Source: a virus (Duplodnaviria; Heunggongvirae; Uroviricota; Caudoviricetes). Taken from it: a stretch of 7,150 nucleotides of DNA. Below the pieces are notes generated by a model. It saw only the letters and a list, made by a program, of their open reading frames with translations. It did not search any database and was not told the origin of the DNA. Position numbers and translations under genes: made by a program. Of the stretch, positions 1 through 7,150 are shown piece after piece (the stretch's first letter is position 1; each line of letters begins with the position of its first letter). The stretch lies in IMG/VR virus record IMGVR_UViG_2609459794_000001, one strand, 5' to 3'.

Positions 1-271
1 GAAGGATATCGTTACTGCGGCGCAGTTCACGATTTTCACGTTCCAGCTCTTTCAGACGCTGACGTTCAGCGGTGGTGAGCCCTCCATCACCGCCCCCGGT
101 ATCCCGCTCATGCTGGCGAACCCAGACACGCAGAGTCTCCGGCGTACAGCCAATCTTTGGAGCAATGGAACAAATTGTCGCCCATTGTGAGTCATATTCG
201 CTCTGACTTTCCAGAACCATACGGACTGCCCGTTGACGGACTTCGGGGGAAAAACGAGTATTTTTAGTCAT
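1..271 (-). CDS. IS3-family transposase OrfA (helix-turn-helix DNA-binding subunit), N-terminal part; 3' end outside window
   Basis: Manual translation of the reverse complement from the ATG at 271..269 gives [30 protein letters not shown]..., continuing open to position 1. An SD-like AAAGAGG sits upstream of the ATG on the minus strand. Not in the ORF track because it is truncated by the window edge. Confidence 0.8.
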
Positions 272-325
272 CCTGTTTACCTCTTTCTCAGGAAGTTTAG
301 TCTCCAGGATTCCCGGGGCGGTTCA
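1..325 (-). mobile_element. IS629-like (IS3 family) insertion sequence, left end only; element continues beyond window start
   Basis: Reverse complement of 271..325 reads as the IS terminus followed by the transposase leader (TGAACCGCCCCGGGAATCCTGGAGACTAAACTTCCTGAGAAAGAGGTAAACAGG then ATG), matching my recollection of the IS629/IS1203 end. The encoded OrfA N-terminus ([30 protein letters not shown]...) is characteristic of that element. The boundary at 325 is placed where the IS-like sequence ends and the phage reading frame begins. Confidence 0.8.
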
Positions 326-734
326 GTACCGCGCTATCGACTTCATTTACGAAGGCAATCAGATAACGTGCGGCGATAAACTGGAGTCCGTGACCGGGAA
401 ATTGCAATTCGACATCAGCAGCCAGTACGACAAGCAACAGGAACATCTGCTGTTTACTCCTCTGTTCAAAGCGGATAACGCCAGAGTTTTCGACCTTGAA
501 GTTGAATCGTCAACTGGAGTTGCGCAGTATGCTGACCGCCTTTTTCTCTCTGCAACCACTGACGGCATCAATTACGGGCGTGAGCAGATGATTGAGCAGA
601 ATGAACCGTTCGTTTACGACAAACGCGTTTTGTGGAAGCGTGTCGGGCGAATAAGGAAAAATGTCGGCTTCAAATTGCGCGTTATCACTAAGTCACCTGT
701 CACTCTCTCAGGCTGCCAGATAAGGATTGAGTAA
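326..734 (+). pseudogene. C-terminal remnant of P22-like tail hub protein (gene 10 equivalent), 5' part separated by IS629 insertion
   Basis: The frame of the 390..734 track ORF (GTG at 390) stays open upstream with no stop all the way to the IS junction at 325/326, so the ORF is a fragment of a larger gene. Its stop overlaps the start of the tail needle gene (TAATG at 732..736), as gene 10 does with gene 26 in P22-like late operons. Assignment to gene 10 is by synteny; I cannot confirm it by sequence recall. Confidence 0.55.
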
Positions 735-1435
735 TGGTTGATTCATCACTGAATGATCCTGTCGTGGTTCAGGCTACGCGCCTTGATGCTTCAATTTTGC
801 CACGCAATATATTCAGCCAGTCTTACCTGCTGTATGTCATAAATCAGGGAGCTGATGTCGGCGCAATTGCCGGGAAGGCAAATCAGGCTGGTCAGGGCGC
901 TTACGATGCCCAGGTAAAAAACGATGAACAGGATGTCGAACTGGCTGATCACGACGCAAGAATCACCGCAAACACAAAAGCGATAAATCTCCTTGAGGTC
1001 AGGTTAACAACCGCCGAAGGGAAGATAGTCGTACTGCGTAGCGATGTTGATTACTTGCTGGATGAGGTTATCGATATTCAGGGGCATCTGGTCACTGTTG
1101 ACCAAAGACTGGATGACGTAGAAAACGATGTCTCTGGCATTAAGAGTGATTACGTATCGAAAACCGTAACAGAATCGCAGTCTCTTGCGTCACCGCTGGA
1201 TGTAAAAACATCATATTCAGTTGATGGAATTCAGGTTGTTGGAGCAAGAAATACCGGATGGACTGCAGCCACAGGTACACCTCTTCTTGGCTCATTCAAC
1301 GCTAACCAGTCATACACTGTCGGCACTACGTACACACAATCCGAAGTCGCAGCTATCGCTACAGGTTTGGAGCAGGCGCGGCAGCGTATTCTGGCGCTTG
1401 AAACAGCACTTAGATTACATGGGTTGATTGACTGA
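734..1435 (+). CDS. Tail needle protein (P22 gp26 family), 233 aa
   Basis: ORF of 233 aa, the same length as P22 gp26 as I recall it. The N-terminus ([35 protein letters not shown]...) resembles the conserved gp26 hub-binding domain. A heptad-like coiled-coil character runs through the middle and the protein ends ...[22 protein letters not shown] lies 7 nt upstream of the ATG. Position between the gene 10 remnant and gene 14 fits. Confidence 0.8.
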
Positions 1436-1890
1436 TGATTACATTCAAACCAACGCGAAACATCGACCTGATAGAAGCTGTCGGAAATCACCCTGACATT
1501 ATTGCCGGAAGCAACAACGGTGATGGATACGACTATAAACATGATTGCCGTTACTTTGAGGTGAACGTGCACGGGCAGTTCGGCGGCATTGTTTACTATC
1601 AGGAAATTCAGCCGCTGACATTCGATTGCCACGCCATGTACCTGCCAGAGATTCGCGGCTTCAGCAAGGAAATCGGGCTGGCGTTCTGGCGATACATTCT
1701 GACTAACACCACCGTTCAGTGCGTCACATCGTTCGCTGCACGCAAATTCCGCCACGGGCAGATGTACTGCGCAATGATTGGCCTTAAGCGTGTCGGAACC
1801 ATCAAGAAATACTTTAAAGGCGTGGATGACGTGACTTTTTACAGCGCCACACGCGAAGAACTAATCGACTTCCTGAATCACGGGAGATAG
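1435..1890 (+). CDS. P22 gp14-like virion assembly/ejection-associated protein, 151 aa
   Basis: ORF whose start overlaps the tail needle stop (TGATG at 1433..1437), indicating translational coupling. It occupies the gene 14 position between the needle gene and the gp7-like gene. Assignment is by synteny only. Confidence 0.6.
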   Translation: MITFKPTRNIDLIEAVGNHPDIIAGSNNGDGYDYKHDCRYFEVNVHGQFGGIVYYQEIQPLTFDCHAMYLPEIRGFSKEIGLAFWRYILTNTTVQCVTSFAARKFRHGQMYCAMIGLKRVGTIKKYFKGVDDVTFYSATREELIDFLNHGR

Positions 1891-1892
1891 CC

Positions 1893-2585
1893 ATGTTATA
1901 TGCATTTAAGCTGGGCAGAAAACTGCGCGGCGAGGAACCTTATTGCCCTGAAAAAGGCGGGAAAGGTGGTAGCTCTGATAAAAGCGCAAAGTATGCCGCA
2001 GAAGCTCAGAAGTATGCCGCAGACCTGCAAAATCAGCAGTTCAACACCATCATGAACAACCTGAAGCCGTTTACTCCTCTGGCTGATAAGTATGTCGGCA
2101 GCCTCGAGAACTTATCGTCTCTGGAAGGGCAAGGTCAGGCACTTAACCAGTATTACAACTCTCAGCAGTACAAAGATCTTGCTGGTCAGGCTCGCTATCA
2201 GAGTCTGGCTGCAGCGGAAGCAACAGGTGGATTGGGTTCCACTGCAACCGGTAATCAGTTAGCAACAATCGCACCAACGCTTGGTCAGCAGTGGCTGTCT
2301 GGTCAGATGAACAACTACCAGAATCTGGCAAACGTTGGGCTTGGTGCTCTGCAAGGTCAGGCAAACGCAGGGCAGACATATGCCAACAACATGAGTCAGA
2401 TTTCGCAGCAAAGTGCGGCTCTTGCAGCGGCAAATGCCAACAGACCATCAGCAATGCAATCTGCTATTGGCGGAGGTGCGTCTGGTGCTATTGCTGGGGC
2501 CGGACTTGCGAAATTAATTGGTTCATCAACTCCGTGGGGGGCTGCGATCGGCGGCGGTCTTGGTCTGCTTGGCTCGTTGTTTTAA
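1893..2585 (+). CDS. Ejection (DNA transfer) protein, P22 gp7 family, 230 aa
   Basis: N-terminus MLYAFKLGRKLRGEEPYCPEKGGKGG, a Q/N/A-rich middle and a Gly/Ala-rich hydrophobic C-terminus (...GGGASGAIAGAGLAKLIGSSTPWGAAIGGGLGLLGSLF) match my recollection of P22 gp7. Length is within one residue of P22 gp7 as I remember it (229 aa). SD GGGAGA lies 5 nt upstream of the ATG. Confidence 0.8.
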   Translation: MLYAFKLGRKLRGEEPYCPEKGGKGGSSDKSAKYAAEAQKYAADLQNQQFNTIMNNLKPFTPLADKYVGSLENLSSLEGQGQALNQYYNSQQYKDLAGQARYQSLAAAEATGGLGSTATGNQLATIAPTLGQQWLSGQMNNYQNLANVGLGALQGQANAGQTYANNMSQISQQSAALAAANANRPSAMQSAIGGGASGAIAGAGLAKLIGSSTPWGAAIGGGLGLLGSLF

Positions 2586-2595
2586 GGGGTAATCA

Positions 2596-3975
2596 ATGGC
2601 TACGTGGCAACAGGGTATTAATTCTGGTGGTTTTCTGGCTGGCATCGGTACGCAAAATGAGAATGCGCCAAAGGCAAGCGACATTAACGCAACGCTTGGT
2701 CTGATCCGCGAAAACAATGAACTGGCTCGCTCAGGTGTAAATAACGTTGGCCTGACCGCGTTACGTGGTCTGGCTGGAGTTGCTGATATTTACAATCAGG
2801 AACAGCAACAGAAAGCTATTAGTGAGTTCAATAAGGTTCACGCTGATGCATGGGCTTCTGGTGATCCATCGGGACTATTTAAGTTTGCCCAGGAAAATCC
2901 AGCGTTTGTTGCACAGGCACAACAGGCGTTTTCCGGTCTTAATGATCAGCAACGCAACGATATGGGCGATTTAGCCATGAGGGCTAACGTCGCTCTTTCT
3001 CAGGGGCCGGAAGCCTACAGTAAATTCATTACTGACAACAAGGACAGGTTAAATCGCGTTGGGGCTAATGCTGACTGGATGATTCAGACAGGTATCCAGA
3101 ATCCAGAGCAGCTATCACACATGCTGACTACTATGTCTCTCGGTGCACTTGGGCCAGAAAAGGCGTTTGCTGTTCAGGACAAGATGGCTGGTCGTGAAAT
3201 TGACAGAGGCAGGCTGGCAGAGACAATCCGCAGCAATCAGGCTGGCGAGGCGCTAACAGCACGTGGTCAGAATATCACGATGCGCGGTCAGGATTTATCG
3301 ATGCAGAGAGCATCAATGAAAGGGTCGGTTGGGAATAATGAGCGTACAGTTCAGTTAGCAGATGGCAGAACTGTAACGGTAGGCGGGAAGCTTCACGGCG
3401 CTGGGGCTAATGCGTTCTACGAAGGTATCGACAACGAGGGGAATATGGTTCGCGTCCCTGCTGGCTCTATTGCCGCTCCGGCTACATCGGCAGCAAGCGC
3501 GCAGAATTACGCAATGAAGAAAGATCTTGATGCAATTTCTGGTGCATCAATTGACGATCTTGGCTTCATGACTGGCATTACAGGCTCTTCAGGTTCTCCT
3601 GCTCTTGGTGCAGATATTCGTAGCCGTGCATCTGGTGGTGATCAGAGGAAACTATACAACGCTGCACAGCGAATCCAAGGAAAGATGCAGAATCAGGGCA
3701 TTGCAGCAGCCAGAGACATGGGGGCATCCGGTATCAACACCGTTGCAGAAGCAAAGATGTATTTTCAAGGTATGCCACAGGTTGATTTCTCAAGCCCTGA
3801 AGCACTGCAACAATCAATGCGCGACATTCAGCAATATACCGACAATTACAACCAGCAATATAACGTTAATGTCGGTAATGGAGGGAAGAAATCATCAATG
3901 CAACAGCCGCCTACTCAGCAATCAGCAGGAGGTAGCTACACGTCAAAATCAGGCATTCAATTTACGGTGGAATGA
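2596..3975 (+). CDS. Ejection (DNA transfer) protein, P22 gp20 family, 459 aa
   Basis: N-terminus [22 protein letters not shown]... and the size (459 aa; P22 gp20 is about 470 aa as I recall) fit gp20. SD AAGGGG lies 6 nt upstream of the ATG. It follows the gp7-like gene and overlaps the gp16-like gene start. Confidence 0.8.
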
Positions 3976-5813
3976 TGAAAGTAACTGCAAACGGTAAGAC
4001 ATTTACCTTCCCTGATGGTACGAGCACGGAAGATATTGGCACCGCCATTGATGAGTATTTTGCTGGTCAGGCTGTTCAGCAACAAACAGTTAATCAGGCC
4101 AATAATGAACCAGCACGTGAAGAACCATCATTGATGCAACAAGCTGGCGATTGGCTCACTGGTGGTCAAAGTGCAGGGCAAATTGCAGAACAGGCTGGTC
4201 GTGGTCTGGTAAACATACCATTTGACGTATTGCAGGGTGGCGCAAGTCTGATTAATGCAATCAGTCAGGGGCTTGGTGGGCCAAAAGTATTGGATGATGT
4301 TTATCGTCCAGTAGACAGACCGACAGACCCCTACGCACAAGCAGGTGAAACAATTGGTGGGTATTTAGTTCCAGGAGTTGGAACGGCAGGAAGCATGGCT
4401 ATTGGATCACTGGCAGAGGCCGCAAATCAGAAAGGCGATTTCGCACAAAATGCAGCTAAAAATGCCGGAGTTAACCTTGCCGCTCAGGGTGTTCTTTCCG
4501 CAGCAGCAAAGGGAATAGGGCGTGGAATAACGGCTATAAAAGGTGATATTGCGCCAGAAGTGGCGAAGAAAATTGCCACATCAGAATCGATGGGCGTGAC
4601 ACCAATGACATCTGATGTTATCCCGCCGAAAAATGCTTTCACTCGCGGCCTTACTCAGGATGCCGAGGGGGCTTTGCTCGGAACAGGCTCAAAGAGAGCG
4701 GAGCAATATGCAACGCGTAGTAAGCTGGTAAGCAATTATTTTGACCGTTTTGGTGAGTACAACCCTGATGATGTGGTGAAATCTCTGACCACCACGTTAA
4801 GGGGGCGGAAGGATGCCGCTGGCGCTGTTATCAATGACGTCACCAATAAAATGGGTAATGCCGCAGTTGATACCACAAATACCATGAATGCTCTGAATAC
4901 AGCGATCGCAAGACAGGAACGACTTGGGACGTCTGCCAATCAAAGCCTGCTTACATCCTTGCGTAACCTACGTGAAGAATTAGCAAACCCTGCAACTGAT
5001 TTGGATGTTACGTTTGATCTCTTGCGTCAGCACAGAACAGCATTTAGATCTAATGTTCAGGGAGATGCTATGGTCTTCCCCAACCAGGCAAAAGCAGCTA
5101 CCAATATGGTAGAGAATGCAATGTCAAAAGACCTTCGTAACGCAGTTGCAAAAAACCTCGGTGCATCAGACGCAGCAAAATACCTTAAAGCAAATTCTGA
5201 TTATGCAAACGTTTATAATAAGGTGCTTAATAAAAACATTGCTAACAAACTCAACAAGGCAAGCAGTGAAGCCAGCCCTGAACTTATAAATACCGTTGTA
5301 TTAAGCAGAAAACCATCTGACGTGAAACGAATATGGAGCGCGCTGGATGATAAGGGGAAAGATGCTATGCGTGCAGCTTACGTCAGCAAAATAGCGGAAA
5401 AGGCCGGGGACTCTCCAGCCAAGTTCATCACTGAAGTTAATAAGCTGAAATCTCAGTCAGGCGGTGAAATTTACAACACTATTTTTTCTGGAAAGCACAT
5501 GAAAGAGCTTGATGCTCTTCATGAAGTTCTACAGCAAACAGCAAGGTCAGACACCGCAAATGTAGTAACTCAGACGGGGCAATCGCAAGCCAACAGGATA
5601 AGGACGATTGGCGCAACTGCGACCCTTGGCGTATCAATGGGGCTTGAGGCTGGTTTTGGTGCAATGATGCGCTTGTATGAGTCCAAAGCAGCAAGGAATG
5701 CTCTCTTACGTCTGGCAAACACTAAAGCTGGAACGCCAGCTTATGAAAGAGCGCTAAATCAGGCTGCTACTGCCGTGCGCCCGCTCTTAGCTAACGAAGC
5801 GACCCGGCAGTAG
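3972..5813 (+). CDS. Ejection (DNA transfer) protein, P22 gp16 family, about 612 aa
   Basis: N-terminus (M)[31 protein letters not shown]... and the size (P22 gp16 is about 609 aa as I recall) fit gp16. There are tandem ATG codons at 3972 and 3975; the first overlaps the gp20 stop (ATGA). A GGTGG SD-like motif ends at 3970, which favours the second ATG (3975) as the true start. Confidence 0.8.
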
Positions 5814-5835
5814 CACTGTAAGCCAAGGACGGCAT

Positions 5836-6330
5836 TTATTTTATAGTTTTTATGAATTCTTTATTAAATCCCTTAGCTTCTCCGGGGTATCTTCCAAAGA
5901 CAATTTTTATAAAAACAGAAAAAATAAAGATAGCAACGCTTAACAACAGTTGCAGTATCATTGGAACCCAAAGAACTACAGGCTCTATATTCATGAAACC
6001 AAATATTCTTCCGGCGATCATGGCGAAGTACCACACTGTTATCAGCAAACTTAGTGGCATATGAATTACTGATATTACCAATCCAAGAGCATCAGTAATT
6101 CTATTTTCAAATTTTTCAGGAGAAAACTTTTCTTTAAGGTAATTCAGTGCGCAGGCCTCATTCTCTGGATTTTCAGCATTTTTCCCTATAGCAATAGAAA
6201 TCTCAGATATCCTTGATTCAATTCTTTTGCGTTTAATAAAACTAGAAAAAAAGAACCACGCAATCTGCAACCCTATCCCCATAAATAGAGTTGCGGCAAC
6301 TAGCACAGCGTAACTCATAGAATCAGACAC
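5836..6330 (-). CDS. Small inner-membrane protein with three predicted transmembrane helices; candidate SieA-type superinfection exclusion protein (by position)
   Basis: Minus-strand ORF in a strongly AT-rich segment. Three long hydrophobic stretches are visible ([25 protein letters not shown]; [26 protein letters not shown]; [28 protein letters not shown]) separated by charged loops. It is convergent with gene 16, 22 bp away, at the locus where P22 carries sieA. Start is uncertain: GTG at 6330 has AGAGG 5 nt upstream (preferred), ATG at 6318 has no well-spaced SD, and the track's longest version starts at GTG 6402. Confidence 0.6.
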
Positions 6331-6518
6331 ACCAACCTCTTTAGTTTTTCTAGTTACTTTGTCACGATAGGATATGCGAATTGATAAAACTAAATTGCGC
6401 ACATGATAACTCAGTAATAATTGTTAATGAAAACATGATCACCTATATTGCACAAGGCGAAACAGGAAGCATAATCTGGTTTCATGAGTGTGATCACGTT
6501 TGGGTAAATCAAAGTCAA

Positions 6519-6541
6519 GGTGATGCTGCCAACTTACTGAT
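6519..6541 (+). repeat. IS1 left terminal inverted repeat (IRL)
   Basis: Direct read of GGTGATGCTGCCAACTTACTGAT at the start of the IS1 copy. Confidence 0.85.
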
Positions 6542-6573
6542 TTAGTGTATGATGGTGTTTTTGAGGTGCTCCA

Positions 6574-6849
6574 GTGGCTTCTGTTTCTATCAGCTGTCCC
6601 TCCTGTTCAGCTACTGACGGGGTGGTGCGTAACGGCAAAAGCACTGCCGGACATCAGCGCTATCTCTGCTCTCACTGCCGTAAAACATGGCAACTGCAGT
6701 TCACTTACACCGCTTCTCAACCCGGTACGCACCAGAAAATCATTGATATGGCCATGAATGGCGTTGGATGCCGGGCAACTGCCCGCATTATGGGCGTTGG
6801 CCTCAACACGGTTTTACGTCACTTAAAAAACTCAGTCCGCAGTCGGTAA
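6574..6849 (+). CDS. insA: IS1 InsA (transposition inhibitor / N-terminal part of InsAB' transposase), 91 aa
   Basis: GTG-initiated ORF giving [91 protein letters not shown]. This matches IS1 InsA, including the zinc-finger Cys pairs and helix-turn-helix, with a few substitutions relative to the canonical sequence as I recall it. Confidence 0.92.
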
Positions 6850-7150
6850 CCTCGCGCATACAACCGGGCAGTGATGTGATTGTCTGCGCTGAAATGGACG
6901 AACAGTGGGGCTACGTCGGTGCTAAATCACGTCAGCGCTGGCTGTTTTACGCGTATGACAGGATACGGAGGACAGTTGTGGCGCACGTTTTCGGTGAACG
7001 CACTCTGGCCACACTGGCGCGTCTTCTGAGCCTGCTGTCGGCCTTTGAGGTCGTGGTATGGATGACGGATGGCTGGCCGCTGTATGAATCACGCCTGAAG
7101 GGAAAGCTGCACGTTATCAGCAAGCGTTACACTCAGCGCATTGAGCGACA
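6768..7150 (+). CDS. insB: IS1 InsB reading frame (C-terminal catalytic part of InsAB' transposase), truncated by window end
   Basis: Manual translation of the -1 frame from ATG 6768 gives [64 protein letters not shown]..., matching IS1 InsB. The frame is open to the window end. Not in the ORF track because no stop is reached. Confidence 0.88.
6825..6831 (+). promoter_or_regulatory. IS1 A6C programmed -1 ribosomal frameshift motif (insA to insB fusion site)
   Basis: AAAAAAC read directly at 6825..6831 within TTAAAAAACTC near the end of insA. In IS1 this slippery run is the established site of the -1 frameshift that produces InsAB' transposase. Confidence 0.75.

Follow-up and report, generated by a model that had tools for sequence, protein, structure and literature searches.

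Intact ejection genes beside sieA in an IS-interrupted P22-like prophage of Escherichia coli: probably a matter of recency

Introduction

A 7,150-nucleotide stretch of tailed-phage DNA (virus record IMGVR_UViG_2609459794_000001; hereafter the window, meaning this whole stretch at its full length) carries complete genes for a P22-like tail needle, gp14 and the three ejection proteins gp7, gp20 and gp16 next to an intact membrane gene, and it does so between an interrupted gene 10 on one side and a copy of the insertion sequence (IS) IS1 on the other. Why should the part from gene 7 to the membrane gene (positions 1893 to 6330) be preserved beside such damage? An earlier interpretation made from the letters alone (the sequence-only reading) saw a degraded prophage in which the targets of an exclusion protein had been kept together with that protein, and proposed either selection for a host-beneficial function or a very recent inactivation.

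The question has its background in the biology of phage P22. P22 gp7, gp20 and gp16 travel inside the virion and, once released, form a trans-envelope conduit through which DNA is injected. P22 SieA, a protein of the inner membrane, is expressed by the prophage and blocks that conduit in superinfecting P22-like phages; its action is directed at the ejection proteins that incoming virions deliver and not at the resident genes. The evidence set out here favours recent IS insertions into an ordinary E. coli P22-like (Lederbergvirus-type) prophage, the distal end of the late operon and sieA being intact through recency, a reading to which we assign a probability of roughly 85%.

Results

Near-identity to complete prophages

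The window is the entire contig JNMG01000083.1 of E. coli 3-373-03_S3_C1 (GCA_000700225.1; 7150/7150 identical), and with this source a Shigella origin, as IS1 together with an IS3-family element might suggest, is rejected. Proteins identical to the window's gp16 and SieA are encoded by many E. coli P22-like prophages that appear complete, for example the retrieved sequences L004, L002, L007 and L009 and that of strain MB53 (L027). These prophages have the same gene order as the window without the IS, and they carry an intact gene 10 and the portal, scaffold, coat and gp4 genes upstream as well as a 193-amino-acid (aa) open reading frame (ORF), mnt, arc, ant, the tailspike gene and int downstream. 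Their gp10, gp26 and gp14 alleles differ from those of the window in a mosaic manner. Positions 326 to 6519 align to L004 without gaps at 99.2% identity, and 50 of the 51 mismatches fall within 326-1890. Across the 3' part of gene 10 and genes 26 and 14, the ratio of non-synonymous to synonymous differences (pN/pS) is 0-0.21, a value that against relatives reflects phage evolution before the IS events and not selection in the host. The differences in this part are typical of the ordinary mosaic allele variation of live phages.

From gene 7 onwards the picture is simpler. Over 1893-6519 (4,627 nt), comparison with the complete prophages L004, L002 and L007 gives a single difference, a synonymous change at position 4682 in gene 16, which is private to the window against all eight relatives compared base by base (L002, L003, L004, L006, L007, L009, L010 and L013). 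Nucleotide identity reaches 100% for gp7 (to L004 and L006), gp20 (to L004, L006 and L007) and sieA (to L004). With no more than one substitution gained since the window and functional prophages shared an ancestor, far fewer than one frame-breaking mutation would be expected. The six open frames are thus the null expectation and silent on selection, because the DNA is nearly identical to that of functional prophages.

The features that set the window apart from its relatives are confined to a single isolate. An exact-protein look-up with gp26 returned two records only, JNMG01000083.1 itself and the Logan contig of run SRR1186753, and a single isolate is the sole recorded carrier of the gp26 allele and of the 114-aa fragment of gene 10. 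The 30-mers across the two IS junctions had no exact match in GTDB species-representative genome contigs or JGI metagenomes, and in a whole-window megablast against 5,426 complete E. coli genomes no place spanned either IS junction. This singleton status points to a recent event. A sign of domestication would be one remnant shared by diverged strains, in which neutral changes had built up and the frames had stayed open; what was found is one isolate and one substitution.

At residue 117 of gp26 the window has Gly, while all 14 other members read from the 90%-identity protein cluster have Ala. The closest allele among those read differs at 4 residues, and Gly117 could be a private change or belong to an unsampled allele. 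The prefix 3-373-03 is common to the source strain and to the pipolin reference strain 3-373-03_S1_C2; we take it to denote one sampled person, whose sister isolates could date the IS insertions. Papers retrieved by the strain name all deal with such sister isolates, 3-373-03_S1_C2 in pipolin work among them, and a literature search on the assembly accession had no result.

Gene map and ejection genes

The following map combines a six-frame ORF list with profile searches (Pfam, PHROG and NCBIfam).

1-325, minus strand: end of an IS3-family element, its terminal 325 bp (100% identity to annotated elements)
326-734, plus strand: 3' third of gene 10, head-completion / packaged-DNA stabilisation protein (PF11134)
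734-1435, plus strand: gene 26, tail needle, 233 aa, full length (PHROG 1219)
1435-1890, plus strand: gene 14, 151 aa, full length (Pfam DUF2824, PHROG 651)
1893-2585, plus strand: gene 7, ejection protein, 230 aa, full length (Pfam P22_gp7)
2596-3975, plus strand: gene 20, ejection protein, 459 aa, full length (Pfam Inj_translocase, PHROG 917)
3972-5813, plus strand: gene 16, ejection protein, 613 aa, full length (PHROG 770, PF26808)
5836-6330, minus strand: sieA, predicted inner-membrane superinfection-exclusion protein (type A), 164 aa (P22 SieA alignment, PHROG 7745)
6331-6519, minus strand: DNA upstream of sieA, AT-rich, 189 bp (identical in complete E. coli relatives)
6520-7150, plus strand: left 631 bp of IS1 (insA at 6574-6849), running to the contig end (Pfam InsA domains)

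An Rfam search of the window gave no RNA family match, and a repeat scan returned short chance repeats only.

The six complete genes are collinear with P22 gp26, gp14, gp7, gp20, gp16 and SieA and align with them end to end. The full-length open frames described by the sequence-only reading are therefore confirmed by family matches and alignments as well as by the ORFs themselves, and so is the tight packing of their starts, with overlaps of 1 nt (at 734 and at 1435) and 4 nt (3972-3975) and gaps of 2 nt (1890/1893) and 10 nt (2585/2596). The tail needle matches PHROG 1219 over 1-233/233 (E 8e-113) and is 70% identical to the P22 protein (233/233 aa). Identity to P22 is higher for gp14 (92.7%, 151/151 aa; DUF2824 at E 2e-52) and gp7 (93.9%, 230/229 aa; P22_gp7 over 1-230/230 at E 2e-133), and lies at 85.3% for gp20 (459/471 aa; Inj_translocase at E 2.5e-117) and 77% for gp16 (613/609 aa; PHROG 770 at E 2e-280). 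The length of gp16 becomes 612 aa if translation starts at 3975; the Phage_P22_gp16 match (PF26808) is precomputed for an identical protein. Full-length family profiles, phage-like lengths and a place behind genes 26 and 14, in the consecutive order 7-20-16 at the late operon's distal end, identify the last three as ejection proteins, for which NCBIfam and PADLOC gave no match.

Gene order and orientation (10-26-14-7-20-16-sieA) are identical in the P22 record (BK000583), in which no promoter is annotated inside genes 10-16. In both genomes sieA is convergent with gene 16 and follows it after 22 bp. Because this is the canonical P22 order, the closeness of the gp20/gp16 targets to sieA is inherited synteny.

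The membrane gene

What had been put forward as a putative exclusion protein is, judged by its sequence, an unambiguous type A SieA orthologue, and the earlier wording understated the case. The protein is identical to P22 SieA at 150/164 residues without gaps (91.5% over 164/164 aa) and matches the PHROG 7745 profile, 'SieA-like', over 1-164/164 (E 1e-108). A match to PF26849 (SIEA) is precomputed for an identical protein; in the copies of Pfam-A, NCBIfam and PADLOC used for scanning, no model matched SieA. The length of 164 aa is counted from a GTG start, and the longest ORF runs to 6402. Three hydrophobic regions were delimited at about residues 5-32, 78-113 and 112-150 from merged Kyte-Doolittle windows of 19 aa scoring at least 1.6, a measure of hydropathy. 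The G+C content of sieA is 35% against 49% in the late genes, which is the usual signature of a moron.

Further support comes from the work of Leavitt et al. (2024; PMC10883804). The hydrophobic regions are consistent with the TMHMM result reported there for P22 SieA, and the motif FxRYPxEAxxFNK, singled out there as a conserved cytoplasmic motif of SieA, is present at residues 145-157. According to the same source, each P22-like prophage examined has sieA between its homologues of genes 16 and 9. In the window the gene 16 flank is as in P22; the gene 9 side is hidden by IS1 and the contig end, and the identical DNA in relatives runs on to mnt, arc, ant and gene 9. A second form, the type B SieA of E. 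coli prophage HS1, occupies the same position in a P22-like prophage and confers the same exclusion phenotype, but is only about 24% identical to P22 SieA and has a 30-aa N-terminal extension (PMC10883804), in distinction from the type A protein of the window. Regarding function, P22 SieA with 85 bp of upstream DNA cuts the plating of P22 by at least 7 orders of magnitude, P22 SieA is reported to work in E. coli as well, and sieA is described as weakly transcribed in lysogens and up-regulated on induction (PMC10883804).

Mutations by which P22 escapes SieA map to gp16 and gp20 (PMC10883804). At gp16 G532 and gp20 T338, T341, A348 and G350, all of them escape positions, the window keeps the P22 wild-type residues. 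It differs from P22 in having Ala at gp16 P546, the site of the escape mutation P546S, and its gp20 is 12 aa shorter.

The type of sieA found here was seen in 35 of the 5,426 complete E. coli genomes, against 1,516 that have P22-like ejection-gene DNA.

IS insertions and contig ends

Positions 1-325 are 100% identical over 325 bp to elements annotated as 'IS3 family transposase' in many E. coli chromosomes and plasmids. The start of orfA lies on the minus strand (1-271), with matches to NCBIfam transpos_IS3 and Pfam HTH_Tnp_1, and on the same strand the end of the element reads TGAACCGCCCC..., a terminal sequence for which a text search found nothing. The names IS629/IS1203 are candidates for it; the annotations (PGAP, PLSDB) give only 'IS3 family transposase'. 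Homology to every prophage relative breaks at 325/326. Gene 10 is cut at codon 337 and retained from codon 337/338 to its stop codon, the breakpoint being computed from the ungapped match to L004. The fragment covers positions 357-469/469 of Phage_stabilise (PF11134; E 2e-69) and is 93% identical to residues 359-472 of P22 gp10, and its ORF could begin no earlier than a GTG at 390. The disruption of gene 10 noted earlier is hence well founded. As gp10 is essential in P22, the gene interrupted is one whose loss makes a prophage defective, and the insertion would be expected to abolish the production of stable infectious virions. When the first 337 aa of L004 gp10 were used as a homologue query, full-length gp10 clusters and anonymous fragments were retrieved, none of them attributable to 3-373-03_S3_C1.

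Mobile DNA of another kind occurs nearby in otherwise complete relatives. ORFs resembling HNH/NUMOD4 homing endonucleases lie at or beside gene 10 in L002 (4526-5251), L007 (6225-6770), L011 (15692-16183) and L027 (6204-6749), either in the gap from gene 10 to gene 26 or immediately upstream of gene 10. The surroundings of gene 10 look like a hot spot for mobile DNA.

On the other side, IS1 starts at 6519/6520 (with a 1-nt ambiguity), 189 bp upstream of sieA, and relatives lose homology at 6519. The copy is 99.8% identical to IS1 family elements. In intact relatives the corresponding site is intergenic, 28 bp past the stop codon of the 193-aa ORF that precedes sieA, and this placement is what a simple insertion would look like. 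The retained upstream DNA (6331-6519) has 0 mismatches to L004. In alignment with P22, no convincing homology to the PsieA/orf59a region is seen from 6349 outward, which is 18 bp upstream of the sieA GTG. A consensus promoter scan of the sieA strand over 6331-6519 returned none at threshold, and the best candidate picked by eye is TTCATT-17-TATCAT at 6431-6403. In the intact relatives there is no terminator-like site between sieA and the upstream mnt/193-aa operon, and a Pmnt-like promoter may supply some of the sieA transcription, a share that IS1 would cut off.

The gene between mnt and sieA is the 193-aa ORF, without a Pfam match, in E. coli relatives (L004 12432-13158) and orf59a in P22; in L011, L015 and L018 this slot holds 59-aa and 121-aa ORFs. 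The slot adjoining sieA is a variable moron site.

Both contig ends lie inside IS copies, the IS3-family element on the left and IS1 on the right. The Logan contig of run SRR1186753 (L022; 6,248 bp) corresponds to window positions 299-6546 and breaks at the same places as the NCBI contig. The window is a contig of its own because both IS are repeats at which short-read assembly broke, and both junctions between IS and phage are real. The sequence-only reading had described the region downstream as replaced by IS1 in a degraded prophage. While IS1 is indeed present at 6519/6520, neither a replacement nor a degradation beyond the hit in gene 10 is established, since the contig ends inside both IS.

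Other P22-like remnants in E. coli

Remnant contexts were retrieved via SieA, gp16 or the IS. Five types retain the following parts, with left breakpoints given in window coordinates.

L001/L008/L012/L014 (ybhC-bioA): keeps 2895-3254 (joined in frame to part of a lysis gene) and, further on, the DNA from 3943
L025 (sbcB-dacD): keeps from 3748
L026 (E. coli strain 81, next to intS and yfdC): keeps from 4514, with a frameshift in gp16 and ISSen4 splitting sieA
L018 (next to intS and yfdC): keeps from 4658
L016 (next to intS and yfdC): keeps from 4857, the cut being due to an IS21-family element (domains IstB_IS21 and rve)

The gp7 gene is absent in 5/5 types, and all or part of gp20 and gp16 has been removed by large deletions or IS cuts. 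In contrast to the window, which keeps gp7, gp20 and gp16, the other remnants have lost their ejection genes in whole or in part. All except L024 keep the sieA end of the late operon, and IS elements are often involved. L024 (10703-13134; E. coli strain 504239, at intS, tRNA-Arg and yfdC) has the window's IS3-family element, with 100% identity over 325 bp, inside its gene 20 homologue, and there is no sieA. A broken exclusion gene is seen in L026 (9269-12306), in which a truncated, frameshifted gp16 is accompanied by a sieA split by the IS3-like ISSen4, a counter-example to the notion that sieA is always preserved.

The ybhC-bioA remnant contains a 525-aa fusion ORF with Pfam Phage_lysis and Inj_translocase domains, that is, a lysis-gene fragment joined to the 3' part of gene 20 (L001 8427-10004; L008 6159-7736; L012 12356-13933; L014 12356-13933). 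Behind it come the gp16, sieA, mnt, arc, ant and tailspike genes, all intact. This remnant is widespread, occurring in several samples including an NCTC strain. The L025 remnant (11913-19976; E. coli Res13, pig isolates) has int, a LexA-family repressor gene and a cro-like gene abutting directly on a 228-bp piece of gene 20, then intact gp16 and sieA, and its slot between sieA and an Arc/Mnt-like repressor gene holds a Panacea-domain protein, a 139-aa ORF and a ClpP-like protease. In L018 (15709-18252) a reverse transcriptase (RVT_1) stands beside a PRTase-CE protein as a retron-like pair about 5 kb from the sieA-bearing remnant.

Discussion

Under the reading that we favour, the IS3-family element would have landed in the essential gene 10 at codon 337 and IS1 in intergenic DNA 189 bp upstream of sieA. 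Both insertions would be so recent that nothing had time to decay, which would leave the ejection genes and sieA intact, and the resident ejection genes would probably be silent passengers. The proximity of the target genes and the excluder is without functional meaning for the host cell. Of the two explanations offered by the sequence-only reading, very recent inactivation is the one favoured by the single private synonymous site at 4682 and by alleles and junctions known from one isolate only. Selection for a host-beneficial function is left unsupported, given the standard P22 order, the 1 substitution in 1893-6519 and the cut ejection genes of other remnants. The preserved conduit targets do lie beside the exclusion gene, as had been stressed, but this adjacency is inherited P22 synteny, and SieA acts on the proteins of incoming virions.

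Some observations weigh against recency as the explanation, or narrow what it means. Were the rest of the prophage absent from the genome, the locus would be a genuine remnant, albeit a very young one. 'Recent' is also a relative term, as one substitution in 4.6 kb bounds time only loosely. Finally, sieA is intact in the independent remnants L014, L016, L018 and L025, a pattern to be expected as well were the gene of use to the host.

That last observation leads to the possibility that sieA alone has been kept by selection as a host defence against P22-like phages, with the ejection genes intact by linkage and recency. Such a role would be in line with the strong exclusion (at least 7 orders of magnitude; PMC10883804) that P22 SieA exerts when 85 bp of its upstream DNA are present, with its reported function in E. 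coli, with the low-G+C moron signature of the gene, and with the intact sieA of L016, L018, L025 and L014, where the ejection genes are cut. The intactness of sieA in most remnants is, however, an ascertainment effect, because these were found by searching with SieA, and sieA is split by ISSen4 in strain 81 (L026). The gene type is also rare (35/5,426 genomes), and its expression in the window would have to cope with an IS1 copy 189 bp upstream, with a P22 PsieA sequence that is not conserved, with no consensus promoter found on the sieA strand, and, given that no terminator-like site separates sieA from the mnt operon in intact relatives, with the loss of whatever part of its transcription IS1 may have cut off. 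One isolate with zero substitutions in sieA gives no signal for selection on the gene, and we regard this explanation as unlikely. To see the ejection cassette and sieA as a functional unit retained jointly for the benefit of the host is extremely improbable by comparison. Six intact frames beside IS damage are the sole point in its favour, and 1 substitution in 4.6 kb explains this intactness fully. In published P22 biology, ejection proteins act only when delivered by a virion and SieA targets incoming proteins, and the P22 record annotates no promoter inside genes 10-16. Other remnants break at five points in genes 20/16 (2895-3254/3943, 3748, 4514, 4658 and 4857), gp7 is gone in 5/5 remnant types, gp16 is frameshifted in L026, and the IS3-family element sits inside gene 20 in L024, while the arrangement itself is the ancestral P22 order (PMC10883804).

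A different kind of alternative concerns the rest of the prophage. Perhaps it is otherwise whole, interrupted by two simple IS insertions, with its remaining genes on other contigs and its remnant-like look an assembly artefact. The window is a complete contig ending in both IS, the Logan assembly (L022, 299-6546) breaks at the same places, and IS1 sits in intergenic DNA 28 bp past the stop of the 193-aa ORF, all of which would be expected in that case. The query with the N-terminal part of gp10 gave no matching fragment from this strain; nothing speaks directly against the idea, which we consider an even bet. It is compatible with recent IS insertion as the best explanation and changes only the word 'remnant'.

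The arrangement is already known and ordinary, and its proper annotation is that of a P22-like late-operon fragment with a type A sieA, an IS3-family hit in gene 10 and an IS1 flank. For similar loci it follows that the label 'remnant' cannot be given to a whole short contig with IS copies at its two ends, and that intact frames are uninformative on selection while the DNA is identical to that of functional relatives. It is doubtful, though conceivable, that the IS-crippled prophage, without making virions, still expresses SieA, either from a promoter in the retained 189 bp or from one created at the IS1 junction. If so, immunity to P22-like coliphages would stay with the host while the risk of induction was gone, and the locus would show an exclusion gene caught at an early stage of its domestication, one more defence gene outliving its phage, as the already well-documented concept has it.

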